A stretch of DNA of 58,614 nt, from assembly GCA_032718475.1 (NCBI GenBank), contig JAUCBJ010005177.1, positions 1 through 58,614 on the forward strand, read 5' to 3'. Shown here piece after piece: positions 9,474 to 58,614 of the stretch. The position numbers and the translations under genes are program-made. The notes under the pieces were generated by a model. That model was not told the origin of the DNA, made no database searches, and worked only from the letters and a program-made list of their open reading frames with translations. Position 1 is the stretch's first letter. The number at the start of each line of letters is the position of its first letter. The DNA is from Nemertoderma westbladi. Lineage: Eukaryota; Animalia; Xenacoelomorpha.

Positions 9474-12400
9474 TGGACAGACGATTGTCGGCAGACGAAT
9501 GGCCTCTGGATGTCCAGAAACGGTGGGCTTCTTCAAAGGACAATTATTCCTTCCACTTGAGCCGAATTCAAGGGACAACAACTGAAACTGCTAGTGTCTC
9601 AGAATTCAGTAAGGTTCGTTCTGTTATAGGGAATAACGTTTTGTAAATTATGGGTCAGGTAGAGAATGTATAGGCCTAGATAAATTATTTATGAAAAAAC
9701 TAGGAATTTAATAAAAAACAATTTGAGGCAGCCGACCGGTTGGTCAAACGTCAACGATTCCTGAGCTCATAAGTTCCTATATTAAACTCTAGAACCAACT
9801 ATATTTTTTAAAACAAGATACACCCCAAACCGGGGTAAAAGGGATAATTTATTTGAAGTAATAACTAGCCTTGTAAAATGTACACGAGGTACTGTAGAAG
9901 GAGAGTACGACCCAGGGTTTGGTACGACCCAGGGTTTGGTACGACCCAGGGTTTGGTACGACCCAGGGTTTGGTACGACCCAGGGTTTGGTACGACCCAG
10001 GGTTTGGTACGACCCAGGGTTTGGTACGACCCAGGGTTTGGTACGACCCAGGGTTTGGTACGACCCAGGGTTTGGTACGACCCAGGGTTTGACTTTTCAT
10101 CTAGCTAGTTCGCCTAGTCTGGGGCACTCCGTGAAAATGAGACAATGGTAGCGGTTGTCTGCAGTCGCATTGCAGAACCCACAGATTCCCCCGTAATTAT
10201 GTATGTGGAAGGGGGTTATGTTTCGAAGTAGTTGTATCTCTCAACCACGAGAGATACAACGTTTAACTACGTGCCTGTTTCTTTTATTAGTTCCTTTCCT
10301 TATAGCCTTGATCGGCGAAACTTTCATTTCGGCTTTGGTGATATTTTTTATATTCTTCTAAGACATCGGGGTTAAATATATTGGGGTGTTTTTGTATAAC
10401 AACTTCTATATATGTCCGAGAATTTTTTAATTTTAAGGCTATTAATTGTATTAATTATTAATTTGTCGAAGAAGCAGTGCACAGACTATCTGCAAATAAA
10501 TATAATTAGAAGCGAACAACCATCATATTATCTTACTGTAACATAGTTACAATTACTACAGTACTGTTGAACAAAGTCAAGTGAGCGGAACAAAGTTGTC
10601 ACAATGAGAAAAAAGTGTCAATATAGGGAATCTGGGCACAAACAATAAGTATTGGGTGTGACCATTTTCTTCCAACTCATACAGAATAGTATTTTTGTAT
10701 TTTTCACTTGAATTTTGAGTTGTAAACAAAATATTTTTATGTTTTTTCGAAACGTTTGACTAAATTATTCCCCTTATGAATTAAAGCCAAGCAGATATAC
10801 TGTATAGCAAATCACAATTATGGTTTATTCGTAAATTTCTTGTCATGTAACTTATCCTTCGGACAGACAGAATTATATGTTATTCATATCGAATACCTCA
10901 CTAACATCTTGCTCTACCGTCATCGCCCACACAATGACGTAGATGGTTGTGTAATTATTGGTAGATTCTTTCATTTAATAAATTTTGCGCCCTTTGTAGT
11001 TGTTTTTTAGCGAGATTCTAACCAAGATTCCTTCTAGATTCAAAGTTTTCTAATTTAATATAAGAAAATTTCAAACGTAAATACTAATTTCATTATGCGC
11101 ATCCACTTTTATCCTCTATATACTGTATGTTATCTCGGAATACATGGCGGTGTTGACATAATGATGACAACTGCTAGACAGACATCAGACATAAACAGCA
11201 TACTAATAATCTCAGAGCTTATCAGACTCAATTTCATTGTCTCTATCCGGTTAACTATTAACTATGTTTTTCTTGCGATAAACTAACATGTTTTATGTTT
11301 TCTTCTATGTTTTCCTAATATGTTTTCTTAATTCTTTAGTCTGTTATTCAACCGCAGTGTTCTTGTGCGAAGTACGTCGAAGCGTTAATGGTTGAGATAC
11401 GGGAGAAAGATAACGTTATAAAGAATCTCAAAAATAAAAAGAGAGAAAAGGTTTGTATGCTTGTCACGCCGCCTGTTCATTGGCCACTAGTTCGGGGCTG
11501 GGTGCCCAAGTGGTTGCCCAAGTCTTTAGTGAGATAATAGTGGACTATTACATACTAACAAGGTGTAGATAAACTGAAAGAGTAGACCTATATAACTTGA
11601 CGTATTTACACTATTATTGTACAGCTCCTCAAATCACCACAGTCAGATCTGATTCACTATTGTCTTTCTCTCCTACCTTCCATTCCCCCCCCCCCCCTTC
11701 TCCTCCCTTCCTATCTATCTGTACTACTTTTTACTATAACAGACAGACGTTATTAACAAATTGAAACGTCAGACAATGGAGATGAGAGCCGGTGTGAAGC
11801 GACTACAGAAGATATTAGTGGAGAAAGAAGAAACAGTTTGTAGTTTACGAGACGCGATGTCTGTTCTAGAATTACCAAGAGATGTAGAAGCATGGTCAAC
11901 ATCGTTACTAGGTAACATAACTGTCATTAATACAATACCATTGATACATTAATTTACTCTACAAATTAAACCTTGTTTTTAGCAAAGTAATGTAGATGCG
12001 GTCATAGTCAACTCACATCACTCGCCTTCATGTAGATGCGGTCATAGTCAACTCACAACACTCGTTTAGCAAAGTAATGTAGATGCGGTCATAGTCAACT
12101 CACTACACTCGTTTAGCAAAGTAATGTAGATGCGGTCATAGTCAACTCACTACACTCGTTTAGCAAAGTAATGTAGATGCGGTCATAGTCAACTCACAAA
12201 ACTCGCCTTCATGTAGATGCGGTCATAGTCAACTCACAAAACTCGCCTTCATGTAGATGCGGTCATAGTCAACTCACAACACTCGTTTAGCAAAGTAATG
12301 TAGATGCGGTCATAGTCAACTCACTACACTCGTTTAGCAAAGTAATGTAGATGCGGTCATAGTCAACTCACTACACTCGTTTAGCAAAGTAATGTAGATG

Positions 12401-15400
12401 CGGTCATAGTCAACTCACTACACTCGTTTAGCAAAGTAATGTAGATGCGGTCATAGTCAACTCACTACACTCGTTTAGCAAAGTAATGTAGATGCGGTCA
12501 TAGTCAACTCACTACACTCGTTTAGCAAAGTAATGTAGATGCGGTCATAGTCAACTCACTACACTCGTTTAGCAAAGTAATGTAGATGCGGTCATAGTCA
12601 ACTCACTACACTCGTTTAGCAAAGTAATGTAGATGCGGTCATAGTCAACTCACAAAACTCGCCTTCATGTAGATGCGGTCATAGTCAACTCACAAAACTC
12701 GCCTTCATGTAGATGCGGTCATAGTCAACTCACATCACTCGCCTTCATGTAGATGCGGTCATAGTCAACTCACAACACTCGCCTTCAACACTGAACACCA
12801 ATTTGTAAAAGCAACTAATTTATTTTCCACTAAGAATAATAATATTATGGTATTCGCTCTAAAATGATTTATTCCCACAATATATAATTGTATTTCAACC
12901 AAATATAAATACTGTAATTATGTATTGAACAATTCTAGTTATGTATACATCCAAATTTAATCACATTTTACTTAAAATATTTCCAAATTTAATCACTTTC
13001 TACTTAATTGAATCAGTTTCAACTAACTATATTAAATTACTAACCGGACTTCAAATAATTGTATTTTAACAATAATATTTCCTCGTTAATTTGCTGATTC
13101 AATTATTATAATTATAAACTTATGATTTATTGTTGTTCCAGAGCTGACCGACGCTAGCAAACAGTTCCCTTTGTGCTCCAGTAGTGACGATTCCGCTATC
13201 TTTATCAACGGTAGTCTCGACGATATAACATCGATTTGCAGTTCCGTTAAATATGACGACAGTTCTGAGAGCGATGAAGGTAGGAGCTAACTGGGCTAAG
13301 CTAGAGTTAGCTAAGTAGGTGAAGGTTAGCTAAATAAGCTAAAGGTTATCCCCCACCCAGCATGTGGCATGGTTGACATTTTGTATTTAAAATTTTGTAG
13401 GCAGACCGTTCTAACTGATAATACTATTATTATGATTTTTTTTTGTTGACTTATTAAAATTTAAAATTAAAACAGCCCCAGGTTGAACGATAAAAGATAT
13501 ATAAACATATAAATATAATCACGTTCAGGGTGGTAAGGGTTAAGTTCAATAATAAGTCCTAACAGACATAATAACATAAATATATAAATAACATTCATAA
13601 ATAATATGCCTATATTTAGCTATAATAGCTGACTCCCTTCCGGTTGTGTTCATAGATAGTGACGCCAGTAGGAAATGGAATAATATATACAATAAATATA
13701 TTGGAAAATTTTCTTCTTAATATTTCTATTTTCCCTAACTAACAGGTACGTTACGCAGTGCTCCTACCCACACAGATTCTCGAATAGTAAACAGTAAGGA
13801 TTATCAGCTGAACGTATCCGATGTGTTGGGAACTACTGAGGAAGTCAGGAGAAGTAGTTGCAGTTCGGTATATCCTACTCCTAACAAAAGTTGTCTAAAA
13901 CAAGGATTTCTATTTCTACAGGTAAAACTGTAAATGTTTATTTATAAATAGTTACAGTATTTTTAAATATTGACAAAATCAAAATTACCGTTAAAAACTG
14001 TTAAATTGTTTTTAGCGGTATTTCAGAGATAGGGGGCGAGCCATGAAATTGGCAGAGCCTTAACGAATTGACCCTTTTAGGGGGGGTGGTGGGGGGTTGG
14101 TTGGTTGGGTTGGGTTGGGTTGGGTTGGGTTGGGTTGGGTTGGGTTGGGTTGGGTTGGGTTGGGTTGGGTTGGGTTGGGTTGGGTTGGGTTGGGTTGGGT
14201 TGGGTTGGGTTGGGTTGGGTTGGGTTGGGTTGGGTTGGGTTGGGTTGGGTTGGGTTGGGTTGGGTTGGGTTGGGTTGGGTTGGGTTGGGTTGGGTTGGGT
14301 TGGGTTGGGTTGGGTTGGGTTGGGTTGGGTTGGGTTGGGTTGGGTTGGGTTGGGTTGGGTTGGGTTGGGTTGGGTTGGGTTGGGTTGGGTTGGGTTGGGT
14401 TGGGTTGGGTTGGGTTGGGTTGGGTTGGGTTGGGTTGGGTTGGGTTGGGTTGGGTTGGGTTGGGTTGGGTTGGGTTGGGTTGGGTTGGGTTGGGTTGGGT
14501 TGGGTTGGGTTGGGTTGGGTTGGGTTGGGTTGGGTTGGGTTGGGTTGGGTTGGGTTGGGTTGGGTTGGGTTGGGTTGGGTTGGGTTGGGTTGGGTTGGGT
14601 TGGGTTGGGTTGGGTTGGGTTGGGTTGGGTTGGGTTGGGTTGGGTTGGGTTGGGTTGGGTTGGGTTGGGTTGGGTTGGGTTGGGTTGGGTTGGGTTGGGT
14701 TGGGTTGGGTTGGGTTGGGTTGGGTTGGGTTGGGTTGGGTTGGGTTGGGTTGGGTTAATTTTTCCAAATAATTGTCGTTGTCGTCACGATTTTGATATTC
14801 AAAGTTGAGATATTTGAGGGACTTTCAGACACCATTAGTTCAAGAGTATCTCTCTAGAGCGCTACATGTCTAAACATTAAAAATGTTCTCTCATTCCTTT
14901 GCTTTAAATCAGTTCAGCTGTAACTTGGCAGATTTGTACTAGACCATTATTGACCATACTGGCCAGAAGCTGTGCCAGTAAATGAAGGAGGCTAGTCCCT
15001 CTGCTGTTCTCCAGAGGGCAAAATGTCTGAAAGAGAATACCTTTTCCCATTTCGTTACCTGTTATGACGTTATTTATCGTTATTTGGTTTACTCCTAAAA
15101 ATATAACTATAACATGTTCTACAGTATTGACTTTAGTTTACTGTTTTGGTTTGAATCAATCGTACCACTGAAACCATCTCCTTTCCCTTAATTGATAATT
15201 TAACATAAAGGCGAGATAGGATTATAGTCAAGCCCCCCCCCCCCCCCCCCCCCCCGTCTCCATTTTATATTTGGTTAAAATTAGCAGTTTAATTGTTTGT
15301 TTTAGTAACAGTGGTTTATTTATTTATTAAATTAAATTATTTTTATTTTAAACAATTAGCCGGATGACTCATCTACGTGTAAAATCTCCCGCGATGAACT

Positions 15401-19950: not shown

Positions 19951-20699
19951 GAAGCAATACTGATAGTAACAATGTGTTAGCAAGCTGTATAATAACAGAA
20001 GCAATACAGAATATAATTAAACTAGGTAGTTTCAATACGATATACATGCATGACGTTTTTTTTGTTTTTTTTTTCGTTTGTTTTTTATTTCAGTTTGAAT
20101 ACATTTAATAATTATTAAATATAATCACATGATACGACACGGAGTAAAATACAGCATTATAAAACAACAACACTGTACATACTGTAGGCCACATAGAAAA
20201 CTGAAAATTAAGAAAACTAAATAAGAGGAGAAAAAAGCTGTGCTAAAAATAGCGGATTGCAGAGGGGGATGGTTAAAATTACAACACTTCAAAAAGTCGA
20301 CTTGCGTGAAATTAAGATATAATGAGTTTAAAAGAAGCTGAAGATGGGAGGAGATCGTTCCATAATCGAACTCGAACTCCATGGGATGATAATGACTGAG
20401 GAATGGGACTGATATCTAACCGACACACTTCCTACAGTTTACATTAGGTACGTAAAGATTCCAAAAATTAATCCATCTCCCTCCAGGGGAAATTCGAAGC
20501 AAATAACAGCTGATTACTCTCAAAAATAAAACTGCACGTAAGCGGATTCAATTCCCTGCACTACCCAGCAGAAAATGGGGGAAGTGGCGTTTTACCAATT
20601 ACAGTTGGGAAGGTGACATTACTTATATAATGTCACCTAATAATCAACTTAGGCGATACACATTGCCAGCCACGAACAGAGTTGAGAGGTCATCTCAGG

Positions 20700-21948
20700 T
20701 GTAAAAGCTTCTGTGGGATATAACTGGCCCCTTTGCTTCGCAATCCAGTTTCCCCCCCAGGCGCTGGAATACTCTAAAAGGTTCTCTAACTGTATATATA
20801 TTCCCCTCGCCCGCAAGGTACCGTTATAGGTGTTTTAACGGACATAAAAGTCATTCTGCTATATACGTGTTTTGGCGGACATGGTAAGGCAAAAAACCTA
20901 CAATGCACCAAATACCTTTCACAGCTTAGCCGTGATGATTCATATTACGACATCTAACAGCTGGTTGCTGACATGGAAACAGCCATTGGACGCATGGTTC
21001 TTTGTTTGGCTTGAGCCAATCAGAGCGATTTTTCCTGTCGACGTGTAGCTTTTCGGCCGATCATAAGGAGAGTGTTCAGTCTTACAGTTTTTTACTGATA
21101 CTTTGTTGTTATTGCTGTCTAAGCCAGAAACAACGGCTCTAGAAAGAAACATTAGTAGGCTTAAGATTATAGAGCGTATGACTGTTATCGGTTCATAACA
21201 ACTCACATATCGGTCCATATCAGTGCATATCATATCTTAACCTACCGTCTTAATGTTTTACTGTTGTCATATCTTATATCAGTGGATTGAATATTATTTG
21301 GAGAACATTTATAAAGAACCCAAATTTCCCAATTTTCTTGATACACTACAGGTTAGAGAGGCGGGTTATATATATAGCGATTGCGACTTATATTATTGTG
21401 GTGTGTATTGAATTTAATGCTATTTGATAAGCCCTACATGAGTCCGTTGCTATTCTCTTTATATATGATCAAATATATTGACGGTCGGCAAATTAGTGAG
21501 CAGTATTGTGCGTTACCGGTAGTGTGCATGATTGTGGCTGATAACTAAGCATTTCCTAAAGAATGCGCCTCATACGTGAATCATAAGCCTTACCGACTTA
21601 CCGTTGTGATTAGTATAAGTCATATCTCTGTTTACTTAGATAGAGCGCCACGTCCTAAAAGGAACTGTTAATATTTCCCGAAAGTGAATAATATTAGTCA
21701 GAAATTAATTATTAATGATCAATCGAATAATACAATACCGTAAGCTTCACTGCAATAATAATCTAAGCCGACAGAATCCAGTCTCCCGGGATTATCCAGC
21801 GGGTGAATGGACGCGCACTAGGCTGGCTTCTGCTAATGTTGTGTTTATTGGTATTAAATATTTGTCATCTTCTAAAGTATATTTGTAAACCAAAAGACAT
21901 ATAAATTTTGGCAGGTTAAACTGCTAAAGGTCTTCAAAAGCGCGTACA
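20700..21948 (+). repeat. 5' LTR (1249 bp)
   Basis: Direct repeat of 31390-32639, starting TGTA and ending TACA. CCAAT box ~21015, TA-rich box ~21366, ATTAAA ~21853. By eye it differs from the 3' LTR at 3 substitutions (21033, 21113, 21595) and 1 poly-C indel. Confidence 0.97.
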
Positions 21949-21959
21949 ATAACAGTCAT
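21949..21959 (+). promoter_or_regulatory. Non-tRNA primer-binding site ATAACAGTCAT (candidate self-priming PBS)
   Basis: Abuts the 5' LTR, lacks the TGG complementary to tRNA CCA, and is the exact reverse complement of LTR 21178-21188 (ATGACTGTTAT). Confidence 0.6.
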
Positions 21960-24211
21960 TGACTTTATTGCAGTAAGCAATAAAGTTGAAAGTACCGGTC
22001 AACCGGTAAACCTGAACCGGTACTTCTGTAGGTCAGTAGGCCCAACTGCCAGAACCGGTACTGCTGTAGGTCCGTAGGTCCAACTGTCAGAACCGGTACT
22101 TCTGTAGGTCTGTAGGCCCAACTGTCCTAACCGGTACTTCCAGTATAAGTACATTAGTATTATTTCGATTGTGATCTATAGTATATTGTAGGCTACCAGA
22201 GGAATAGGGATTGATCACCCCTCATTCTTTTGTATAGTTTACTTATTTCTGTCAGTTTTATTTCCTAGTAAGTTAATATTGAGCTGAAGACGTGTAAGTC
22301 TGCTCAGATTGTTCAGATAATTGTAGGCCAGACTGTTGTCGGATTGTTGTTGAGTTTGGAGAGATTACGGCGTGTGTAGAGTTTGTCTGATAGAGTGCCA
22401 TTAGTAAGTTGGGGCAGCCATATGCTGCAAGGTCAATCCCCTCTTAAAGAATAAGTCGTACTACCGTGTTAGAACGCATACTAACTAACTATTTCAGAAT
22501 CTGCATATACTGTAGTTTATTTAGGCTTGATCATAGTCTGCCAGCGTTTTAGCCTGTGTTTATTTGTGTGGTCTGTTCAGGTACCGTAATAGTTATTACT
22601 CAGATATTTTGTAGGCTGGATTGTTGTCTAGCTATTATTAGGTCTGAAGAGATTGCTGTGTGTGTGGAGTTTGTCTGATAAAGTGCGGTTAGTAAGTTGG
22701 GGCAGCCATATGCTGTAAGGTCAATCCCCTCTTAAAGAATAAGTCGTACTACCGTGTTAGAACGCATACTAACTAACCATTTCAGAATCTACACGTACGG
22801 TAGTTTATTTAGGCTTGGTGGTAGTCTGCCAGCATTTGGTTTGTATTTTGTTTGAGTATTCTGTACGGGTAGTGTAATATTTATTATTCAGAGTTTATGC
22901 GATTATTCGCAACATTCATGTCCCCAAGTTTATTCCTACAGTAATTGTGTTTGTTACACATACCGTTATAGTTAAATTAACCCCGGTACTACACGGGCTG
23001 CTTGGCGTAGGTAAAGACTGGTGACTTTGTGCTTCGGTCACTCCAGCAGATGCCGTGGTTCTTTTAACTGTTCAAGTATATTTAACTGCTGATTATTTGT
23101 TATACCAGTACTTGTACCTAATTTAGGGTTTAGTGTACAGTGCTTTCCGAAGTAATTAGTGTGTAGGCAGTATATTTGTGTTGTAAAGTGGTTAATAGGC
23201 ACGCTGGATCTGGTAGTCCGCGGTAATTAACTTCTGGGTAGGAACACTCCGTGATACATAACGTAGTACCTATAGCGATACGGTTATAGGTCGTCAGGCG
23301 GTGGTATTTTCCTATCTGGACAGTGCAATATATTTACTACTACTTATTATTTCAAATACCGTAGTACCCTGTCAGTTGTAATAACCAGAAATCTAACCCT
23401 TTGTTAGACTGGTTTGTAGACTTCCTGTAAAATTACCCTAAAAATTCGTACGTAATATTTTTGTTGTGTTTAATTTGAGAATTAATCTCACCCGTATCGT
23501 AAGTAATTTGTAGTATTAAGTAACTTAGGTAAATTAGAATTATCTGTTTTAGTGTCCCATAGGTAGCACTTCACTGAGAGCGCACAGCTTCTGTGTAGTG
23601 ACTCCCCCAGAAATAATAACATTTATTTCAAATATTGACAAAACCCTTTTAAACGGGTATATAAATATTATAAATCAACTCAAATGATTTATAAATAGTA
23701 GGCCTGCCATACAACAACTAGGTCTCAATATCAGTTGGACTGCTGCTTAAATAACGGTAATAAAGTAAGTTAAAGTAACCAAGTAACCCTAAAATATTCA
23801 GAAATTCAATTATTCTAAAATAATTGACATACCGGTATTTACCATAGGCTTATTATATTTATTTCTATAAATTTGAGCTGAAATCATACCGGTATTCTGT
23901 AATTAATTCTAGTAATAATTATACTTATATATACTATAAGTGTCAGCTGTATACCGGTATTCACGATAGGCCTATTATATATTTTTAAATATTTGTGCTA
24001 AAATTATATACCGGTACTCTGTGACAAATCTAGTCTGTAATAATACTTATATATATATTATAAGCATACCGGTATTCTAATATAATATATATATATCACG
24101 CTACACTGAGTAGCAGTATCGGTAATTAATTATTAGGCTAACAGTGATACTGAATTACTAGACTTGCTTTAACTGTAATATAGCAGTAGGCATTCGACTG
24201 TACAATCAAAC

Positions 24212-25894
24212 ATGGCTGACACAAGGCAAACTCTGTCAGATAGTCTCCTAGAAACAACAGCCTGTTTCTCAGATCAAAGTGTAGAGAATCCCAGACCGAG
24301 GTCTGAAACCCCTCATACTGTAAGAAGGGCAACCCCTGCAGTGGTTGTGTCAGAACCTAGGTTGGTAGAAAAGATTTCGCAATTTGCGAAGTTAGTGAAG
24401 CGCCGTTGGTCTGCCATAGGTACTCGGGCCCAAGTCAAGCGGGATCAAGAAGAAGCTATAAAACAGCAGCAACCTCCTAGCCAAGAACCTGGTTCTCAGC
24501 GGCCCGATAGCTCCAGTAGTTCGGATACTGTTGAGCGGACGCCAGAACGCGGAGCGAAGATGGCGGATACGGTTTATGATGAGCGGCCAACCTATGAAGA
24601 ATCAACCGACGCCACTTCTTCTCAAGTGGAAAGTGAGGTGGAAAGCGAAGTGGAAAGTGAGGTGGAAAGCGAAGTGGAAAGCGAGGTGGAAAGCGAAGTG
24701 GAAAGCGAATTAACATCAGCAGAGAAGCCACGAACTAGAGACGCTATCGACATTTATTTGTCCGACTATCAGCGATTCCTAGGAGACGAAGAGTTGAGGA
24801 GACGGCTGTCTGGACTTTCCCCTAATAGTGAAGGAACCAAGCTTGTGTTGGACTCAATCGATGCCGAAATGTTAGCTGCAAACCAAGCTGAATGTGATGA
24901 AAAACTCCGCCTCATTAGAGTCCGAGAAGAACAAGTAAAGAAAGAATGGATAGAGAAAAGAAAGGTGGCAGCAGCAGCGGCGGCAGAAGCAGAAGCCGAA
25001 AGAAAGGCGGCAGAAGCAGAAGCCGAAAGAAAAGTGGCAGAAGCAGAAGCCGAAAGAAAGAAGGCAGAAGCAGAAAGAAAAGCAGCAGTGGCAGAAGCAG
25101 AACGGAGAGCTTCTGAGGAGACTATCCAACTGGAGTTGGAGAATCTGCAAGAGACGCAAGACAGTATAAATAAACAGTTTACTGCTAATCAAATGCAGAT
25201 GATGAGAAAATCTACTCCCAAGCGCCAGGGATACACATCCTCGGAGGAAGGCGAGACCACCGATCCTGAAGGCGGAGGAAATAGATCTCATCTAAGTAGG
25301 CGTAGAAAAACATCTTACCGTCGCAAATTGCCTGATTTGCCCCCAGCTGTTAGAAGACAGCTAGCTAGCACAGACTTGAGTAGTATAGAACCTACAGCCC
25401 AAAGTATTAAGGTCAAAAGACTCCCTACAATAGGTGATGAGCCTGAAATAATTAGGCCTGTCGTTCCCAAAGTCACTTCTGTGTTAGAGACCCCTGTACT
25501 TCCAGAGCTTAACTCTAAATTCCCTTTACATAGTACTACACTGCCTGTACCCGGTAGAACAGTCCAAGAGAATATCCCTGTCCAGATAGCAGAGAGAGAA
25601 ATCAAAAATTTGTCTCCCGTCGTCCCGCGTCAGCCCGCTACTATGTTGGCGACTCCCGCTTCGGCGGTTGAGTGGGTGGAAGAGGGACGGCGGGGGATGA
25701 ATCTCCTGCTAGGACAGATGCAGGAGACTGTCCACCAACTTAAGGGAACAGTGAGGGAAGGTAGAGCAGAGTTGCAAGAAGTGCAGCAAAGTATCGCGCT
25801 AGAACGCGACAAATTAGTCAATATACAAAAGGGCATACCAATACCCCCTGTAACATTGTGTCAACCTGTTAGGTCTGAAGTAATACATGCATAA
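24212..25894 (+). CDS. Retrotransposon ORF0 / N-terminal Gag extension (560 aa; acidic ESEV repeats, AEAEAERK coiled-coil repeats, basic RRRK patch)
   Basis: Long ORF inside the element, in the same frame as gag and separated from it only by TAA 25892-25894. Second in-frame start AAGATGGCGG at 24560. Confidence 0.75.
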   Translation: MADTRQTLSDSLLETTACFSDQSVENPRPRSETPHTVRRATPAVVVSEPRLVEKISQFAKLVKRRWSAIGTRAQVKRDQEEAIKQQQPPSQEPGSQRPDSSSSSDTVERTPERGAKMADTVYDERPTYEESTDATSSQVESEVESEVESEVESEVESEVESEVESELTSAEKPRTRDAIDIYLSDYQRFLGDEELRRRLSGLSPNSEGTKLVLDSIDAEMLAANQAECDEKLRLIRVREEQVKKEWIEKRKVAAAAAAEAEAERKAAEAEAERKVAEAEAERKKAEAERKAAVAEAERRASEETIQLELENLQETQDSINKQFTANQMQMMRKSTPKRQGYTSSEEGETTDPEGGGNRSHLSRRRKTSYRRKLPDLPPAVRRQLASTDLSSIEPTAQSIKVKRLPTIGDEPEIIRPVVPKVTSVLETPVLPELNSKFPLHSTTLPVPGRTVQENIPVQIAEREIKNLSPVVPRQPATMLATPASAVEWVEEGRRGMNLLLGQMQETVHQLKGTVREGRAELQEVQQSIALERDKLVNIQKGIPIPPVTLCQPVRSEVIHA

Positions 25895-28396
25895 GGTGTG
25901 GAGCCTACACGCATCTATACTGCTAGTGAAGTTGAAACTCCTATAGCAAACCCTATTAAGGGTGATTATAGACCTGTTATTAATGATATTCCCTATAGAC
26001 CTGATAATGATCCGAGAACTTTATATACCGATAATTCGATATTAAATAACACGATGGCCCAAGAAAGCTTTACGCGTCAGATGGCTAGAACAGAAGCCCG
26101 CCAAGCGGTCAAAGTGGGAGAGATCGTCAAATTCAATGGAGATGAGATGAAATGGTTACCTTTCAACGAATATTACAAAGACAGCATACAGAACTCTGTG
26201 CTATCTAACGGAGAGAAACTTAGGTTCCTCATCAAGTGCTTGGAAGGACCTCCCAAGTTAATGGCGTTAAAGTTTATTGGACATCCAGAAGGATTAAGAC
26301 AAGTTTGGGATACATTAAACATCAGGTATGGTAACAAGGATAACATAGCTAAGTATTTGTATGCAAAATTAGTAGCCCCTCGACACTTCCTTAGTAGCGG
26401 GATTATAGAGTTTTCTGATGAAATTCAGGAAATCTGTAGACAACTGGACTGGTTAGGTAAGTCGCATGAATATCAGAGTTCCATGGTTATTGGAGCCGTA
26501 GTCTCTACTTTACCAAAGGGTGGAGTATGTACACGCTGGGACAAGAAAGTGTTGTACATGAATGAACAACAACGACGAAGTCCTACCATGGCTGATCTCA
26601 TGTCCTTCTTAGATAGTGAAGTAAAATTACAACTCATAAGGCAGTCCAGAGAGAAAACATCGGAAAATAAGGTAAGTGAGAAACCCGTTTCTAGGAGAAG
26701 GATAATACCAGTGTGTTATACTGACGACGGCGAAAGCCAAGCTTCTCAAGAAGAGGACAGCGGGAAAGACACAGCAAAATCTTACTATGACAACAAGACC
26801 TATAAAGACGTAAGTAAATACAAGTCTCGAACCAGTGACAGGAGAGAACAGGTAACAACAACTCCTCCTACGTCTCCTAAGAGAATTCACGGAAGAAAGC
26901 CCGAAGAAAGAACGAGAGTGCATAACGTTAACCAAGTTAAGGTGAGTAACATCAAACCAAAATGTGCGCTGTGCGACGGGCCCCACCGTTTGAGTGCGTG
27001 TGCTGAATTTCTAAAGAAATCCCCTGTAGACAGACGTACAGTCCTGTGGAATAAGCGGTTATGCTATAATTGCCTCAGATCAGGACACCAACGGCGAACC
27101 TGTTACTCCGACGTAAAGTGTGCAAAGTGTGGCGCGAAACATCACATCTTGTTACACAGTGAGTTCGAACGAGACAACCCGAGTCAGGTAAGTGAGCCCG
27201 AACTACATGTCCAATTCAGTGATGTAAATGACACTGATCAAGAGTCTGAGATGGAAGGATTCTATACTGACGAATTCTCCGACGCCAACGAATCCTGTTA
27301 CCTAATAAATACCTCAGTGTATCGAGCACTTACTTATGAAAAAGACACCACCAATGAGTTTCCCCCAACTACTTTTGACAAACAACCATCTTGGAAAACT
27401 CCAACTTCCAATGTAGGAATCAGAGAATTTCCTGTAGTGCAAGTAAGAGTTCACGGACCAAACCACAGTTACATAGTGAATGCACTCCTTGACTCCGGCA
27501 GCACAGGAACATTCATCGATCAAGAACTAGCCGAAGATATCTTTGCTGGACAACCCAAGTTCCGGACTAAATTGAATATGTCAGGAATTATGCAGGTTTG
27601 GAAATCTACCCTAACGGCAGATTACTATGTAGGTGTGTTGTCCACCCCCCAGGATAAGTTAGGAACACAAGGTATAAGGTCAGTAAAAATGGTGGCTATA
27701 AAGAACTTTGCTACTACTCAAGCAGAACCTTATAACTGGGACGAGGATGAGAGTATCCAACATCTTAAGATACCTCGATTCCAGACAGATTATCCTGGAG
27801 TGCAAATACTCATCGGCCAAAACGCGCATGAGGCGCTCGAGACATTGGAGAAACGGCCTGCTCAACCGCAGCCACTACAAACCTATGCGGTAAGAACTAG
27901 AGTAGGTTGGTACTTCACTGGCCCTTCCCGTAGAACTCTCAAAGAGAGATTACCTCAACAACAGGTATACCAAGTAAAGGAATGGGAAGTGGAGAGCAGT
28001 GATGTAGACGATCCAACTGAGGGAACACCATACTCCTCAGATAATGACGATATTAACTCCAATATAGATCAATGGAGACATTGCCTTGGGACGATTAATC
28101 CAGCCGACATCGTTTCCAGAGGAGCAACTCCTCAAGAACTAATAGATACTCCAGGCTGGTTAGGTGGATCCGACTTCTTAAGTAAAGAAGAAGAAGAATG
28201 GCCTCCTCATCTTACCCCGGCGGAGATTAGACAGGCCAAGGGAGCGGAGAAAGTAACACAACAACTCAATCGCCCAGCTGGTCGTTTATGTTTACTGGAA
28301 AGAGACCGAAAACTGTCCGGAAACTATGGAAGGCAAGATACTCTTCCTACGACCACTTCCCTAATCCGACAAATATCTAGGGACTCTATAACGTAA
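25895..28396 (+). CDS. gag: BEL/Pao Gag (DUF1759-type) + 3 zinc knuckles + aspartic protease + RNase H C-terminal remnant
   Basis: KFNGDEMKWLPF..EKLRFLIKCLEG; CALCDGPHRLSAC, CYNCLRSGHQRRTC, CAKCGAKHHILLH; ALLDSGSTGTFI, ILIGQN, AVRTRVGW; then WRHCLGTINPADIVSRG..GWLGGSDFL..EWP (end of Pao RNase H) with no RT in between. Confidence 0.92.
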   Translation, partial: GVEPTRIYTASEVETPIANPIKGDYRPVINDIPYRPDNDPRTLYTDNSILNNTMAQESFTRQMARTEARQAVKVGEIVKFNGDEMKWLPFNEYYKDSIQNSVLSNGEKLRFLIKCLEGPPKLMALKFIGHPEGLRQVWDTLNIRYGNKDNIAKYLYAKLVAPRHFLSSGIIEFSDEIQEICRQLDWLGKSHEYQSSMVIGAVVSTLPKGGVCTRWDKKVLYMNEQQRRSPTMADLMSFLDSEVKLQLIRQSREKTSENKVSEKPVSRRRIIPVCYTDDGESQASQEEDSGKDTAKSYYDNKTYKDVSKYKSRTSDRREQVTTTPPTSPKRIHGRKPEERTRVHNVNQVKVSNIKPKCALCDGPHRLSACAEFLKKSPVDRRTVLWNKRLCYNCLRSGHQRRTCYSDVKCAKCGAKHHILLHSEFERDNPSQVSEPELHVQFSDVNDTDQESEMEGFYTDEFSDANESCYLINTSVYRALTYEKDTTNEFPPTTFDKQPSWKTPTSNVGIREFPVVQVRVHGPNHSYIVNALLDSGSTGTFIDQELAEDIFAGQPKFRTKLNMSGIMQVWKSTLTADYYVGVLSTPQDKLGTQGIRSVKMVAIKNFATTQAEPYNWDEDESIQHLKIPRFQTDYPGVQILIGQNAHEALETLEKRPAQPQPLQTYAVRTRVGWYFTGPSRRTLKERLPQQQVYQVKEWEVESSDVDDPTEGTPYSSDNDDINSNIDQWRHCLGTINPADIVSRGATPQELIDTPGWLGGSDFLSKEEEEWPPHLTPAEIRQAKGAEKVTQQLNRPAGRLCLLERDRKLSGNYGRQDTLPTTTSLIRQISRDSIT

Positions 28397-30022
28397 TAAC
28401 ATATGGAGTGGGCGTGTGACTATATCATTTTATATTTGTTTTTATTTTATATTTATGTATGTATTATTATGTAATTTTATTATAATCGTTTTCTTTAATT
28501 TTATTTAGTAGAATGTTATTTTAGTGATTATTTAGTAGATTAGTGCAATATATTAGTGTTTATTACGTATGTAATTACTTATAATATATATTAGTGCGAC
28601 GGCGAGAAATAATTATTTTTCTCTTTCCTTACTGTCCGTATCATATTATAAATACGTGACTACAGTAAGATGAAATGTCCGTACTTATTAAAGTACAATA
28701 AAGCTCCTACTATACTTAAGTATTATTGGTAGGCAGAGTATTAGGAATGCAAAGTTCAGATCCTCGTGTCTCGGCTAAACCAAGCTCTGGGTAGACCTTG
28801 GAAACGACTTGCCTCTTCACACTGACATTGCTTCGTGCGATATTGCTCTTCTACCTTATAACAAATAATACATATAGTAGCGTGATGTCCCTCTAACAGT
28901 AGCGTAAATCGCAAATAAATCTGTTAAACTTTTTGACCATCTGTAATTCTAGTCGATTAAGATATCGTGGCACCCACCGATATACTTGAAAGACAAATTC
29001 TAGAATCAGTGGTTAACGTCCCCAGACAAGTTCTGGAATAAATCGGTGCTCATCCTAAATATTAATTTAATATTTATTAAAATCTGTAAAATTCAGATCC
29101 TTTAAAATTTCTAGTCAATTAAGATATCGCAGCACTTACCGATATTCTTAAAAGACAATCTCATAGAATTAAGGATCCTATGTCCCCAGACCTGCTCTGG
29201 AATCAACTTATGTCAATTTTAACATCAAATAATAAAATTCACGGGAATAAATTTAAATTCATATTTTAAATGAATTTCATAAATTGTCATTTTGTACAAT
29301 TTATAACATTCCCAAAATTCCATTAATTAATAGATCATGGGAGCGGAGATTCATCCTATTGAGTGTATTAGAGTGCGAGAATCTCCAACATATAGTCAAT
29401 AGCCGATAAAATTAATAAAATCATGCATAAAGAGGATATTGACAATTAAAGAATTATTATTAAATAGCATCCCAGATCTGTATGCATGAGAATTACCCTA
29501 ATTCTACCGCTAGCATTCCATAATGTCACCATAGCAACACCCACGCTAGAATTAGAAGCAAGTTAAAAGAACAATAGAAAGCTTGTCCCATTGCATAGCA
29601 TAGAGAATATAGCACACTGTTAGTATCCAAGGATACACAGTAATAACGTGACATTCTGGAAGGCACTGACTAAGGGACAAATGGCCTGTATGTGTACAAT
29701 TGGTGACAGTTGTGTGGAATTTGTGCGTTTGTAGGCGAATGTTACTGCTAAGGTGTGTTTACAGTAGCTAGTCGCATTTGTGAAAGTAACCCAACTCTCC
29801 TATAGAAAGAACCTAAAGTGGATTCAAGCCTTTGGGACGGACAGTGGAGTGACTTGTGCCGGTTATCATTGTCGTAATGTTGCTACATGTTGGCGTAAAC
29901 ACCGCGACAACGGTACATCGGCGCTGAGGATCCCACTGTCCGGGGGCAAAGAGAGGTGGGCAGAGACGTCCGCTCGCCTAAACATAAACTCATTTCGATA
30001 TTAACAAACTCAGATAGCAGAT

Positions 30023-31311
30023 ATGACGGAGTTGATAGAAGATGATCTTGGTATCAAGGAGCGATATACTCTACTTTTGCAAGCATTTGTGGATAGCTTA
30101 ATACGCGGTGAAGCCGATCCAACCATTACGGAGGACGATGGTCGTTATATCGAACCGCCGATGTCCCAAGAGCAACTTGCGCGTGAATTGGACTATCGAA
30201 AATCCACCGCGCGCTATACGCATCGTAATAGTACGTATATGGACTTCCTAACTACCGGCCATCCTATCGATTTACATGATACGGACGATGTAGACACCGA
30301 AAGGGAAATGGTTCTATTTAAATATCATACCCAGCGGAGTCGGAACGATAAACCGAGAATAGATCACGAAAATTCTATTCGTAACAGACTGGGAAGACGA
30401 ACCAATATGCCTAGAATCTGAGGAGATTCAGCCTATCGCGCCCTGAACAGCGACAACGATTACATCCTAGAATGGTATCAAGGTCCACAGTGTCTCACTG
30501 CGTACGATTATCGCCATGCCAACTATGTTTCTCGGCAACGTTGTCGGTTATGCGCATCGAGAGACCATGTTACGCCCATGGACACAAACGTCCGCTGTTC
30601 CTATTTCCACGAACAACCGGCGATGGAAATTTATTGCGCGTATTGCAGATTTAATAATTTGCATATTTTTGCGGTTTGCCCTCAATTTATGACTCAATGT
30701 CACCATTGTCAACTAAAGGGACACACCAGTTTCGATTGCCCTTTTAATCGCGATTTGGAAAGCGTAGATGAAATGATCACACTACGTTACATTAGAGCTT
30801 GGGAAGCGAAGGCTGATTTACATCGTGATTCGCGCCATCGCTATTATCCTGGACGCGCTTACGAAGGAATTTATGCGTTCCATCCTTATCTATTCGCTTC
30901 TGTCGAACAGAAATCACGCATATCGAGTTACAGGAAGTATATCGACGGCCTTACGAATACCGAGCCCGTGAACGCGAGTTGGAAAGGACCATTAAACCCC
31001 GGAGGTTTCTAGCTGCCTATAGTCCACCCACGGCCCTCGTTCAGACCACTCGTAAAGGACCCGTAAGAGCGGCTGTCTTAAAACGCGCTCTCAAAGCCGT
31101 TAGACCCCTCTCCCCCGACGTTGATGCCAATCAACCCGGCACTTCGACTGGCGGATACACCGACCATAATTCTACACCCTCTGATGCAATCATATTGCAC
31201 CCTTCACCCAGGAGTTATAGCCCTCCTTGTAAAGTGGCTCGCCCCAAAGAGAAAAGGACTCTGGCTAGCTTTAAAAAACTGCGTAAACGCCGTCCGCGCA
31301 AGAAAGACTAA
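30023..31311 (+). CDS. Accessory 3' ORF(s) of the LTR element: zinc-knuckle protein (30023-31012, one in-frame TGA at 30419) plus an overlapping basic ORF (30979-31311)
   Basis: 30023-30421 and 30422-31012 share a frame. Motifs CRLCASRDH..C, CAYCRFNNLHIFAVC, CHHCQLKGHTSFDC. The last segment ends FKKLRKRRPRKKD. Confidence 0.6.
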
Positions 31312-31380
31312 CTGTTTAGAGTATTTACGTATATTAGAAACTGTGATTTTGTATATTTTATAGACTCAAATCCCATTTTC

Positions 31381-31389
31381 TGGGAGCGG
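31381..31389 (+). promoter_or_regulatory. Short polypurine tract (TGGGAGCGG) abutting the 3' LTR
   Basis: Purine-rich run immediately before the TGTA of the 3' LTR. Confidence 0.6.
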
Positions 31390-32639
31390 TGTAAAAGCTT
31401 CTGTGGGATATAACTGGCCCCTTTGCTTCGCAATCCAGTTTCCCCCCCCAGGCGCTGGAATACTCTAAAAGGTTCTCTAACTGTATATATATTCCCCTCG
31501 CCCGCAAGGTACCGTTATAGGTGTTTTAACGGACATAAAAGTCATTCTGCTATATACGTGTTTTGGCGGACATGGTAAGGCAAAAAACCTACAATGCACC
31601 AAATACCTTTCACAGCTTAGCCGTGATGATTCATATTACGACATCTAACAGCTGGTTGCTGACATGGAAACAGCCATTGGACGCATGGTTCTTTGTTTGG
31701 CTTGAGCCAATCAGAGCGATTTTGCCTGTCGACGTGTAGCTTTTCGGCCGATCATAAGGAGAGTGTTCAGTCTTACAGTTTTTTACTGATACTTTGTTGT
31801 TATAGCTGTCTAAGCCAGAAACAACGGCTCTAGAAAGAAACATTAGTAGGCTTAAGATTATAGAGCGTATGACTGTTATCGGTTCATAACAACTCACATA
31901 TCGGTCCATATCAGTGCATATCATATCTTAACCTACCGTCTTAATGTTTTACTGTTGTCATATCTTATATCAGTGGATTGAATATTATTTGGAGAACATT
32001 TATAAAGAACCCAAATTTCCCAATTTTCTTGATACACTACAGGTTAGAGAGGCGGGTTATATATATAGCGATTGCGACTTATATTATTGTGGTGTGTATT
32101 GAATTTAATGCTATTTGATAAGCCCTACATGAGTCCGTTGCTATTCTCTTTATATATGATCAAATATATTGACGGTCGGCAAATTAGTGAGCAGTATTGT
32201 GCGTTACCGGTAGTGTGCATGATTGTGGCTGATAACTAAGCATTTCCTAAAGAATGCGCCTCATACGTGAATCATAAGCCTTACCAACTTACCGTTGTGA
32301 TTAGTATAAGTCATATCTCTGTTTACTTAGATAGAGCGCCACGTCCTAAAAGGAACTGTTAATATTTCCCGAAAGTGAATAATATTAGTCAGAAATTAAT
32401 TATTAATGATCAATCGAATAATACAATACCGTAAGCTTCACTGCAATAATAATCTAAGCCGACAGAATCCAGTCTCCCGGGATTATCCAGCGGGTGAATG
32501 GACGCGCACTAGGCTGGCTTCTGCTAATGTTGTGTTTATTGGTATTAAATATTTGTCATCTTCTAAAGTATATTTGTAAACCAAAAGACATATAAATTTT
32601 GGCAGGTTAAACTGCTAAAGGTCTTCAAAAGCGCGTACA
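31390..32639 (+). repeat. 3' LTR (1250 bp)
   Basis: Direct repeat of 20700-21948, followed by TSD TCAGG. Confidence 0.97.
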
Positions 32640-33052
32640 TCAGGGGACAAAGGGGCTAGCAATTGGGGATAGTGGCAACAGGGAGTGGCGAGATGGAGAT
32701 TAATTAGGTTAGCCAATGATGGGACGGGAAAACAGGTGATTGGAACGCATCCATTGGCCAGGCCACTTAGAACAGTAGGAGTAACTAATATGTGTTAGTA
32801 CTATAACCGTTGTACTTGTTGATTATGATTCAGTTGGTATCTGTAGAGTTGTGTGAGACCGGAACCCGGAACGGTTTTTAACCGTGGTCATTACCGTGAT
32901 ATGATATTCTGACTGTGCTATTATTACTGTACGTTCTGACATTACAACAACTGGCACTAAAACTCAGTTATTCCAACGGCCTTCTGCCTTGATATTCAGA
33001 CGTTAGCCTTTCAGCAGGCTACGGACGCGGCGACGCGTATAGCCCAAACAAC

Positions 33053-38903: not shown

Positions 38904-40550
38904 GATAGATATAATTAAGACATAATTAAGAATTTAAGAATTAGTAAGCATAGGACTACCCTATAAACCCTATAGTACCCTATACTTACTTAATGTTAAT
39001 AAAACCTCATAACCAACCCCTGGATTTCCATGAATATATATTGTTACACGTTATGGCACTACAAACACTTCGCCAGACAGACCACTACGTCCTAATAGAC
39101 ATCCTTTATAACTCTGCACTATAGAATTAATGAACCATAGTTATACAGAACCCCCACCACCGGGCCCATTTTGGGCAGGGACTACAGCGTAGGAACTATC
39201 GCCGTGGGGGGTCCTGCTTCACACTTAGTATTTCTTTTTGGTAATAGTTTTAAACTATGGACAGGTCGGAAACACCTTTGATATTTTAGTCCAAATGTTA
39301 AGTTTTTATATCCCGTTTCAGCCGAAATTTTAGTATAAAAGGAAGCGGCGACATTAGAGGCGCAATTATTTAAATTAGGGACGCAATAAAACGCACCTTA
39401 ATTGTTGCTTAAATTTTGGACTGAATTACGTAGGTGTTTGCGGAACTATTAGCGCTTTACTTAGGTAAAGGTTGGGTTTAAGGGGGGGGGGGGGGGGGGG
39501 TACACACCCCCCCCCCCCCCCTGAACACTTTTTTTAAATGTCTACAATTTCTGCTAAAATTAAAATATTTTGATTTTATACAGCATGGGCTGTTAAAATA
39601 TGGCTAACATTTATTTTTTCGAAAAATTTTCAAATTTCCAGACGCCCTCTAGCGGCCATTGGATGAAACAATCAGAAGTTATCAGAAACCAATTTTTTTC
39701 TAATTACGGAGGTGAGCTCCACAAAAGTTAGGTTAAAAGTTTTACTTTTGCCTTTTTATGAAAATTTATTAAAATTAATATTTGGCAAAATTTTAAAAAT
39801 TTTTGGCTTTTAATATGAAAAATTGGCTGTAAAAACAGAAATATAAAAATTCCAACCGATAACTTTTAAAGAACTGCCGAAACCCTTTCAAATTATCCAA
39901 AAATAAAGAAAATTGATTAAAAAATGGTCGAGCAGTAAGTAGTATATAATTTTAAAAATGAAAAATGTCATTCCAAGATAATATTTGCCTTCAAACTTTA
40001 AACCTTCCAGCCAGAACTGGCTGTCTGTGGTCTGGTTGGTTAATTATTTCAGGCATGATACAGTTCATTGGTGTCATTGGGTTTCATTGGGGTTTAATTT
40101 CTCTCGTTTATTTTATTTTAGTACATAAGTTAAGTGATTGAAAAGAAACCTCTCAGTACTATTTTCGCGGACAAAATATTAGCCAGAACGTTATTCATTC
40201 ATTTATTTTGATTAGCTGATATCAACAGCTATTTGAACCAGGTTTTGCACATTCGGTATTCAACTTTATTTAGATATTTTCGGATAAAATTATAAAATTG
40301 AATTGACCCGCGCCCTTGCACGCGCTCTCAACTACAGATTGTCTGTCGGTTAGTAAGGCTTCATGTTAGCAGTGGTTGGCGGACCTTAGTGGGAAGACTA
40401 CTGTATAAAATTAGACCGGTAGTTGAGACCGAATTTAGAACGGCTCGATCTTATTAGACCTTCGCACCCCTGGATATCAGAGCGTCCAGCGAAGAACTTC
40501 TAGACTCTCGAGATACAAAGTAAGAACTCTTGTGGATTCGGTTCTTGACG

Positions 40551-43500
40551 GATCTTCCACAGTAAACCCTTCCTCTCTGTTTCCTAAAGGAAATACTGTT
40601 CACCACCCTGGGTGATCTTCCACAGTAAACCCTTCCACTCTGTTTCCTAAAGGAATGCCTGTTCACCACCATGAGTGATCTTCCACAGTAAACCCTTCCA
40701 CTCTGTTTCCTAAAGGAATGCCTGTTCACCACCATGGGTGATCTTCCACAGTAAACCCTACCTCTGTTTCCTAAAGGAATGCCTGTTCACCACCATGGTG
40801 ATCTTCCACAGTAAACCCTTCCACTCTGTTTCCTAAAGGAATGCCTGTTCACCACCATGGTGATCTTCCACAGTAAACCCTTCCACTCTGTTTCCTAAAG
40901 GAATGCCTGTTCACCCCCATAGGTGATCTTCCACAGTAAACCCTTCCTCTCTGTTTCCTAAAGGAAATACTGTTCACCACCCTGGGTGATCTTCCACAGT
41001 AAACCCTTCCACTCTGTTTCCTAAAGGAATGCCTGTTCACCACCATGGCTGATCTTCCACCGTAAACCCTTCCACTCTGTTTCCTAAAGGAATGCCTGTT
41101 CACCACCATGGGTGATCTTCCACAGTAAACCCTTCCACTCTGTTTCCTAAAGGAATGCCTGTTCACCCCCATAGGTGATCTTCCACAGTAAACCCTTCCA
41201 ACTCTGTTTCCTAAAGGAATCCCTGTTCACCACCATGGGTGATCTTCCACAGTAAACCCTTCCACTATGTTTCCTAAAGGAATGCCTGTTCACCCCCATG
41301 GGTGATCTTCCACAGTAAACCCTTCCACTCTGTTTCCTAAAGGAATGCCTGTTCACCACCATGGGTGTCTTCATCTTCCACAGTAAACCCTTCCACTCTG
41401 TTTCCTAAAGGAATGCCTGTTCACCACCATGGGTGATCTTCATCTTCCACAGTAAACCCTTCCACTCTGTTTCCTAAAGGAATGCCTGTTCACCACCATG
41501 GGTGATCTTCATTTTCCACAGTAAACCCTTCCACTCTGTTTCCTAAAGGAATGCCTGTTCACCCCCATGGGTGATCTTCCACAGTAAACCCTTCCAACTC
41601 TGTTTCCTAAAGGAATCCCTGTTCACCACCATGGGTGATCTTCCACAGTAAACCCTTCCACTCTGTTTCCTAAAGGAATGCCTGTTCACCCCCATAGGTG
41701 ATCTTCCACAGTAAACCCTTCCAACTCTGTTTCCTAAAGGAATCCCTGTTCACCACCATGGGTGATCTTCCACAGTAAACCCTTCCACTATGTTTCCTAA
41801 AGGAATGCCTGTTCACCCCCATAGGTGATCTTCCACAGTAAACCCTTCCACTCTGTTTCCTAAAGGAAATGCCTGTTCACCACCATGGGTGATCTTCATC
41901 TTCCACAGTAAACCCTTCCACTTTGTTTCCTAAAGGAATGCCTGTTCACCACCATGGGTGATCTTCATCTTCCACAGTAAACCCTTCCACTCTGTTTCCT
42001 AAAGGAATGCCTGTTCACCACCATGGGTGATCTTCATCTTCCACAGTAAACCCTTCCACTCTGTTTCCTAAAGGAATGCCTGTTCACCACCATGGGTGAT
42101 CTTCATTTTCCACAGTAAACCCTTCCACTCTGTTTCCTAAAGGAATGCCTGTTCACCACCATGGGTGATCTTCCACAGTAAACCCTTCCACTCTGTTTCC
42201 TAAAGGAATGCCTGTTCACCACCATGGGTGATCTTCCACAATAAACCCTTCCACTCTGTTTCCTAAAGGAATGACTGTTCACCCCCATAGGTGATCTTCC
42301 ACAGTAAACCCTTCCACTCTGTTTCCTAAAGGAATACCTGTTCACCCCCATAGGTGATCTTCCACAGTAAACCCTTCCAACTCTGTTTCCTAAAGGAATG
42401 CCTGTTCACCCCCATAGGTGATCTTCCACAGTAAACCCTTCCACTCTGTTTCCTAAAGGAATGCCTGTTCACCACCATGGTGATCTTCCACAGTAAACCC
42501 TTACACTCTCCTAAAGGAAATACTGTTCACCACCATGGGTGATCTTCCACAGTAAACCCTTCCAACTCTGTTTCCTAAAGGAATCCCTGTTCACCACCAT
42601 GGGTGATCTTCCACAGTAAACCCTTCCACTCTGTTTCCTAAAGGAATGCCTGTTCACCCCCATAGGTGATCTTCCACAATAAACCCTTCCACTCTGTTTC
42701 CTAAAAGAATGCCTGTTCACCACCATGGGTGATCTTCCACAGTAAACCCTTCCACACTGTTTCCTAAAGGAATCCCTGTTCACCACCATGGGTGATCTTC
42801 CACAATAAACCCTTCCACTCTGTTTCCTAAAGGAATGCCTGTTCACCCCCATAGGTGATCTTCCACAATAAACCCTTCCACTCTGTTTCCTAAAAGAATG
42901 CCTGTTCACCACCATGGGTGATCTTCCACAGTAAACCCTTCCACACTGTTTCCTAAAGGAATGCCTGTTCACCCCCATAGGTGATCTTCCACAGTAAACC
43001 CTTCCACTCTGTTTCCTAAAGGAATGACTGTTCACCCCCATAGGTGATCTTCCACGGTAAACCCTTACTCTGTTTCCCAAAGGAATGCCTGTTCACCACC
43101 ATGGGTGATCTTCCACAGTAAACCCTTCCAACTCTGTTTCCTAAAGGAATGCCTGTTCACCACCATGGGTGATCTTCCACAGTAAAGCCTTCACTCTGTT
43201 TCCTAAAGGAATGCCTGTTCATCAACATAGGTGATCTTCCACAATAAACCCTACCACTCTGTTTCCTAAAGGAATGACTGTTCACCGTCACCACCATGGG
43301 TGATCTTCCACAGTAAACCCTTACACTCCCCTAAAGGAAATACTGTTCACCACCATGGGTGATCTTCCACAGTAAACCCTTCCACTCTGTTTCCTAAAGG
43401 AATGCCTGTTCACCATCATGGGTGATCTTCCACAGTAAACTCTTACACTATGTTTCCTAAAGGAATACCTGTTCACCCCCATAGGTGATCTTCCACAGTA

Positions 43501-47312: not shown

Positions 47313-48020
47313 AAAGAAATGAATGCAGTGAATTGGGCAAAGAAACTCGAACGAAAGCAGAAGAGGACATTTTTAGGATTATTCATGATAAAAGTAGGGT
47401 TCCCGAATAACATAACATTATATTAAAGGGAGAGGGGGAGGGGGGGGGGGGGGCTATTATTAACTCCGACATTACTGTCATTACTTTTCAATTTAAATTA
47501 TAAATATGTGGGGTTTTAAACTAACCAATAATGTTAAAGAATAAAAATGAAAATAAATCGTAATTCTTGTCGTAAATACTCATTAAGAATGACGTGTCAC
47601 TACAAAAATCGCATAAAGAGAATTTTCTATTATAAATTATGCCGTATAATAGTACTATTATTATGAATAAATATTTTTAAGTACTATTTATATGATATTC
47701 ATTGTTACAAGTTACATCAAGGTAATAATGCACCAATTGGTTAAAAGGCAAATATAAGCTGAACCTAGGTACATAATAAAGAAATATAAACCATACGAAA
47801 GTATACTTTAGTAACCATAGTAACTTAACTATACTAACCATACTTATAGTACATTAGTTGACATAGTAACCAATAACCTTTAGTACAATGAGAAAGGAAA
47901 ATGTTTAATTAAATTCTAATCACCCAAATCCAATGTTGAAGACGGAAGGCTAATGTAAAACTAATAATAATCAACCGAATAGCAAAGTAGTAATGAATAA
48001 ATACGAGTAATTTTAAAGCA

Positions 48021-58487: not shown

Positions 58488-58614
58488 TACTGCATTACTC
58501 TCGTTATTTATAATAGGCCTATCAGGTACTCAGGTAGGTCTGTAGGTACTCAGGTACTGGGCACTGCACACTGCACACTGTGGTAGAGCTGTAGAGCGTC
58601 TGTGTTTGGTGTTC

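Follow-up and report, generated by a model that had tools for sequence, protein, structure and literature searches.

The locus raised the question of what primes reverse transcription in a BEL/Pao retrotransposon that lacks the usual TGG tRNA-type primer-binding site (PBS). Within the window, which is the whole 58,614-nt stretch of DNA analyzed and in which all of the element's features lie on the forward strand, the element spanned 20700-32639. It was bounded by a 1249-nt 5' LTR (20700-21948, TGT...ACA), a 3' LTR (31390-32639), and target-site duplications of the 5 bp TCAGG on the left (20695-20699) and right (32640-32644); TG...CA LTRs and a duplication of this length agree with the 4- to 6-bp duplications of BEL/Pao elements. 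The 11 nt adjoining the 5' LTR (21949-21959) formed a predicted PBS without TGG, and its exact reverse complement was an 11-mer inside the LTR, the candidate self-primer ATGACTGTTAT at 21178-21188, of which a second copy was located at 31869 in the 3' LTR. Based on the sequence comparisons described below, we propose that the LTR 11-mer serves as the reverse-transcription primer instead of a tRNA, and we assign this reading a probability of roughly 0.78.

The assignment to BEL/Pao was based on the coding region. An open reading frame at 25895-28396 encoded gag (DUF1759, E=3.9e-12 in Pfam, and zinc knuckles) and an aspartic protease, for which the profile match was weak, in fusion with the tail of a BEL RNase H. 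All protein matches of the element were to BEL/Pao elements rather than to Ty3/gypsy chromoviruses, and Peptidase_A17, a BEL/Pao domain, was present in 16/16 long homologues. In an alignment with P0007, residue 668 corresponded to position 27925 and residue 1229 to position 28055, indicating that about 560 residues, including the reverse transcriptase (RT), were absent from the element. Thus, the RT and most of RNase H were missing between ~27930 and 28055, and only the RNase H tail matched BEL proteins. There was no integrase match downstream of the gag-protease frame. The element is therefore a non-autonomous BEL/Pao element that has kept gag and protease and has lost RT and integrase, and because it does not encode these enzymes itself, it would need the RT/RNase H of a helper element. 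Protein relatives above ~50% identity (over short stretches) were not found, and hence no helper was identified. The two LTRs differed by three substitutions and one indel (99.7% alike). These near-identical LTRs and the target duplication show that the element was recently inserted or mobilized and that it moved carrying its present PBS.

Several other features of the element were recorded. A coiled-coil-like, low-complexity frame without a Pfam match (ORF1, 24212-25894) preceded gag, and a single in-frame TAA (25892-25894) separated the two; this codon could be a site of readthrough or else have arisen by mutation in this copy. Additional frames were located ahead of the 3' LTR (30005-31311). 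One of them had a weak CCHC zinc-knuckle signal, with Atlas matches to CCHC proteins that each scored below 0.9, and an overlapping one was basic. Inspection of the sequence located a short, imperfect purine tract at 31382-31389, just before the 3' LTR. The leader was long (2.2 kb) and contained three 38-nt repeats (22014-22138) and a duplication with a 288-nt period (22321-22837).

We recomputed the pairing between the PBS and the LTR, on which the original prediction was based, and it held. The match was exactly 11 nt long, began at offset 0 from the LTR end, and had no Watson-Crick extension on either side. The chance level of such a match was about 1e-3: when the LTR was shuffled with its dinucleotides preserved, 15 of 20,000 shuffles gave an anchored match and 43 of 20,000 gave one if offsets of 0 to 5 were allowed, and 27 of 55,839 background 11-mers matched equally well. 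The two hairpins that had been described were also recovered: the one immediately 3' of the PBS (21962-21986) folded at -13.3 kcal/mol, and the local hairpin that competes for the LTR 11-mer was present but weak (-5.1 kcal/mol). An extension of the primer:PBS duplex by upstream pairing was not above chance in the window (p=0.064) or in the relatives combined (p=0.22, a value that includes a wrong row for locus L046, whose junction with a non-YAG acceptor was missed). ARAGORN detected no tRNA genes in the window, nor did it detect any in 36 loci. The pairing between the PBS and the LTR is likely functional.

The 11-mer was next compared among other copies of the family. The family is present in high copy number, with 16,582 contigs of sequencing run X1 mapping to 20500-22700. 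The region 21120-21240 was covered by 155 contigs in X1, 72 in X3, and 2 in X5, which represent three studies. The 11-mer was invariant within the family: no substitution at a frequency of at least 1% was listed within 21178-21188 among the X1, X3, and X5 contigs, with variants close to contig ends left off. Because the 11-mer did not vary, there was no within-family covariation with the PBS. Divergent family copies aligned over 21144-21189 and then turned into unrelated sequence, so the conserved block also reached 34 nt upstream of the 11-mer. The depth in X1 was 77,085 at 21185-21189, 28,632 at 21190-21194, and 13,415 at 21195-21199; that is, because the divergent copies break off, the depth falls one base past the predicted 3' end of the primer. 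In the case of the PBS, none of the 40 entries listed, out of 377, was located at 21949-21959, and the family depth was continuous over the LTR-PBS junction. Two further features of the LTR were noted in the family data. The X5 depth on 20700-21165 was ~10 to 100 times that of the LTR part beyond it, as if this segment were common to a more abundant subfamily with a different downstream part. At 21140-21145, many family contigs had ~20 extra letters that were missing from both LTRs of the window copy.

A comparison with relatives extended the analysis beyond the family. The BEL loci sampled comprised 35 loci (L001-L035) on eukaryotic contigs in GTDB prokaryote genome bins and 68 loci from metagenomes. 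The presence of the former in prokaryote genomes is most likely due to contamination by host animals; one of them, L012, lies within a Wolbachia chromosome record. LTR pairs were searched for in 35/35 bin loci, 7 of which had too little flank, and in 39/68 metagenome loci, 2 of which were also too short; the other 29 were left out because of short flanks. A TGG PBS was found in 17 relatives, several of which were near-copies of one another, and the longest self-complement was 6 nt or less in 16/16 that were scored. All seven relatives that lacked TGG and whose LTR end was defined (L001, L003, L004, L011, L013, L042, and L103) had an 11- to 15-nt self-complementary PBS. In each of the seven, the match bridged a predicted splice junction inside the LTR that joins a strong donor to a YAG acceptor, and shuffles equaled the junction match in only 0 to 5 of 300 cases per element. 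For L003, the LTR end was assigned by visual inspection; for L004, L013, and L042, the score came from the 3' LTR. Comparing relatives had been suggested as a check on the prediction, and its outcome was favorable: the PBS letters were unlike among the seven elements, each PBS was complementary to its own LTR, and when PBSs and LTRs were swapped between elements, the best match in 56 pairs was 10 nt.

When 37 upstream regions were scanned blind, a spliced match of at least 11 nt was obtained in 9/37 regions versus 8/740 shuffles. Unspliced matches were weakly above the shuffles (3/37 versus 15/740; L018, L044, and L059). The L018 match was an inverted repeat of the host that lies next to a TGG element. 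In contrast, L044 (122-285) and L059 (166-465) had an unspliced 11-nt self-match directly before gag, with a geometry like that in the window; L059 is distinct from protein P0013 (44%). Overall, a PBS with an 11- to 15-nt match to a predicted LTR splice junction was observed in L001, L003, L004, L007, L011, L013, and L042 and also in L046, L049, L066, L076, L080, L086, L098, and L103. The match in L046 was 13 nt and used a non-YAG acceptor. Junction matches of 10 nt were observed in L041, L099, and L082, and a doubtful one of 11 nt was observed in L036. L095, whose LTR end was ambiguous, yielded no match. Metagenome contigs contained no match to an exact 22-nt LTR-end pattern, and viral contigs contained no BEL relative. 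In the window LTR, the best junction with a strong donor scored 4, compared to 11 for the contiguous match. Thus, most of the sampled relatives appear to assemble the primer by splicing, and the window element appears to be an intron-less form.

The phylogeny was in line with this grouping. In an IQ-TREE analysis of 18 natural long open reading frames, from which frameshifted loci were excluded and in which 400 window residues were aligned, the window protein fell into a group with 11 self-complementary elements, and the 7 TGG elements were separate from it (SH-aLRT 96.7, UFBoot 95). FastTree gave the grouping a support of 0.92 when two more elements were included and 0.71 in an earlier, broader set. 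The window protein sat on a long branch, and support for whether it was nested in or sister to the self-complementary clade was 33/38. L059 was in none of the trees. The original prediction that this BEL lineage primes itself had two parts, and independence from tRNA is the part that gained support, namely from the conserved 11-mer in the family, the self-complementary relatives with different letters, and the tree grouping. The other part is a putative transcription start at 21178.

A motif scan confirmed that there was no TATA box 30 nt before 21178 and that a TA-rich box (TATATA at 21367-21371) was located downstream, as had been noted. Candidate promoter motifs were found farther upstream (21016-21080), namely CCAAT at 21016 and an initiator-like TCAGT at 21076. 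The sole hexamer of the LTR that resembled a polyadenylation signal was ATTAAA at 21853-21858. In 4 of 13 relatives, TATA-like boxes were located 103 to 244 nt before the donor; hits were listed for five loci (L001, L003, L103, L042, and L004), and they were farthest in L003 and L001 and at ~140 nt in L103 and L042. In L059, a TATA at 166 lay 49 nt upstream of the primer, which is at 215. Because the boxes were 49 to 244 nt upstream of the primer, the primer appears to be internal in this lineage. The distance from the primer to the LTR end was 760 nt in the window element, compared to 44 to 216 nt in the relatives and 222 nt in L059.

RNA folding favored the primer:PBS duplex only when the RNA 5' end was placed at ~21170-21178 (0.86 to 0.9 in 4/5 lengths), which counts for a start at 21178 and against an upstream one. 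With upstream sequence the duplex was lost (+8.8 kcal/mol for a start at 21144 and +10.7 kcal/mol for a start at 21078), and even from 21178 itself it was lost in 1/5 lengths folded. Modeled long-range folds of such size are weak evidence either way. We slightly favor a start site upstream, near 21078-21100. A start exactly at 21178 is doubtful, and a start downstream of 21178 is unlikely. If transcription started upstream, the primer would bear an unpaired 5' tail. A start at 21178 is not required for self-priming.

The proposed mechanism would proceed as follows. Transcription from the 5' LTR would begin at or upstream of 21178, and the RNA at 21178-21188 would pair with 21949-21959. The RT/RNase H of a helper element would then cut directly 3' of U21188, and the released 3' OH, facing the last LTR base, would start minus-strand strong-stop DNA, which RT would extend across the LTR. 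Since only the 3' cut would be needed, an internal primer could work. In relatives of the spliced type, the intron would lie 5' of the cut, where the DNA copy would not record the splicing. The LTR of the unspliced type may be ancestral; alternatively, a single splicing of the 3' copy followed by reverse transcription could have produced it. The chances seem about even that a branch of animal BEL/Pao elements dropped tRNA priming in favor of an internal primer that is cut out midway along its leader, mostly built by splicing and unspliced in some elements (the window element, L044, and L059) through intron loss or gain. If so, priming would be gated by splicing in the spliced state but constitutive in the unspliced one, and both would be distinct from the 5'-end primer of Tf1. 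A replicative intron at 21352-21914 was considered and rejected by reasoning, as it would vanish from the LTRs, yet both LTRs retain it.

Other explanations of the pairing were weighed against self-priming. Six letters of the 11-mer (21182-21187) appear to resemble the anticodon loop of tRNA-Asn(GUU), and the primer could be a host tRNA fragment, that is, a half-tRNA cut in the anticodon arm, with the LTR match being incidental. Priming of this kind is known in Ty1/copia lineages (PMC6317226), but it would leave both the exact LTR match and the conservation edge at 21189 unexplained, and the unrelated PBS letters of the relatives each match their own LTR. We consider it improbable. It also seemed quite improbable that the pairing was selected as an RNA structural switch for packaging, dimerization, or translation control while the 3' hairpin or another RNA acts as the real primer. 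The PBS does have a competing hairpin and an alternative helix of 10 bp as neighbors, and fungal GalEa elements have been proposed to use a hairpin site without a PBS (PMC6934838). However, in the element and its relatives, the duplex ends 0 to 5 nt from the LTR end with its 3' end pointing into the LTR, which is the geometry of priming, and the core length stays at ~11 to 15 nt.

Given the spliced primers in most sampled relatives, a splice-junction primer might be expected in the window element too, and junction matches of 10 nt do exist in its LTR: a donor at 21184, within the 11-mer, joined to an acceptor at 21914 or 21351 would give a 10-nt match at offset 1. That donor is non-consensus, though, and strong donors gave a best score of only 4; the unspliced letters are retained up to 21189 in copies of the family, and no such joint was found among the 15 of 27 joints listed. 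These observations make a spliced primer here very improbable. The idea hardest to credit was that a copy or subfamily had its tRNA PBS deleted and that the match arose by chance. Large stretches are deleted inside the element, and a genome scan inspects many elements, both of which would favor coincidence. Against it stand the chance level of ~1e-3, the continuous depth over the LTR-PBS junction in the family, the nearly identical LTRs of an element that moved with its present PBS, and the recurrence of the pattern among relatives. Self-priming by the LTR 11-mer thus remained our preferred reading.

In the literature consulted, Tf1 has been shown to self-prime, and the same has been predicted for related chromoviruses and for some plant copia elements. 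In Tf1, the mRNA's initial 11 bases act as the primer, and the RNase H cut falls between bases 11 and 12 (PMC7175516). The window element shares with Tf1/Tf2 of S. pombe, Tj1, Tosmo, and the Tf1/sushi chromoviruses an 11-nt PBS that adjoins the 5' LTR, is complementary to a stretch of it, and has no tRNA site (PMC7175516, PMC10085805, and, for self-priming of Tj1, PMC4600332). Unlike the Tf1/sushi elements, which are Ty3/gypsy chromoviruses, it belongs to BEL/Pao (DUF1759, with Peptidase_A17 in its matches). In contrast to the 5'-end primer of Tf1, the primer of its relatives appears internal, and most of them seem to build it across an intron. Tf1 RNA also folds into a pretzel with three duplexes around the PBS (PMC10085805). 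Candidates for the side helices occurred in the right order in the window, yet 32/300 and 151/300 shuffles did as well. One putative side helix, a 10-nt stretch at 21749-21758 complementary to 21965-21974, was not above chance as a duplex. The pretzel gained no clear support here, and the window copy, unlike Tf1, has no RT. The window element may work like Tf1 while standing outside the Tf1 group. As a separate observation, a strong donor-like site at 21740 overlapped a stretch (21740-21758) complementary to the leader hairpin (21965-21978), and in the 5' LTR alone, pairing with that hairpin might hide this donor.

Self-priming has also been predicted from PBS-LTR complementarity, as here, for Tcn1 and the plant TAR (Houba, Osr-1) Ty1/copia elements (PMC6317226). 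These elements differ from ours in superfamily and hosts, and the available part of that paper describes no splice-assembled form for them. Their case indicates that the trait can arise outside one superfamily. With tRNA-primed BEL/Pao elements (Belpaoviridae), the window element shares TG...CA LTRs, a 5-bp target-site duplication, a DUF1759 gag with zinc knuckles, a protease, and the RNase H tail motif. The tRNA-primed elements have a TGG PBS and no self-match, and the window element shows the reverse pattern. No report of self-priming in BEL/Pao was found in the literature searched, which did not reach most subscription papers and Repbase notes. The available list of self-priming elements in PMC6934838 names no BEL element, and the main text, as available, of three BEL/Pao surveys (PMC554778, PMC3118150, and PMC6238403) contains no discussion of PBS, tRNA, or priming; further background is in PMC3601003 and, in generic form, in PMC8220671. 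If our reading is true, BEL/Pao would be the third self-priming superfamily, in animals, which would point to repeated escape from tRNA dependence and possibly also from control by tRNA fragments. PBS annotation based on tRNAs would then miss a self-priming BEL lineage, and an internal or splice-built primer would alter the rule that a self-primer is the RNA 5' end.

The remainder of the window contained a frame for an MFS transporter (2196-3089), a kinase-like frame (57507-58529), and a DUF7869 frame (55160-55636). The MFS transporter frame was ~30% like the best database protein, and the host seems to belong to a lineage that has been poorly sampled. Satellite arrays were located at 9871-10125, 11983-12827, 40488-46000, and 47989-51509, with units of 17, 40/47, 63 to 64, and 32 nt, respectively.
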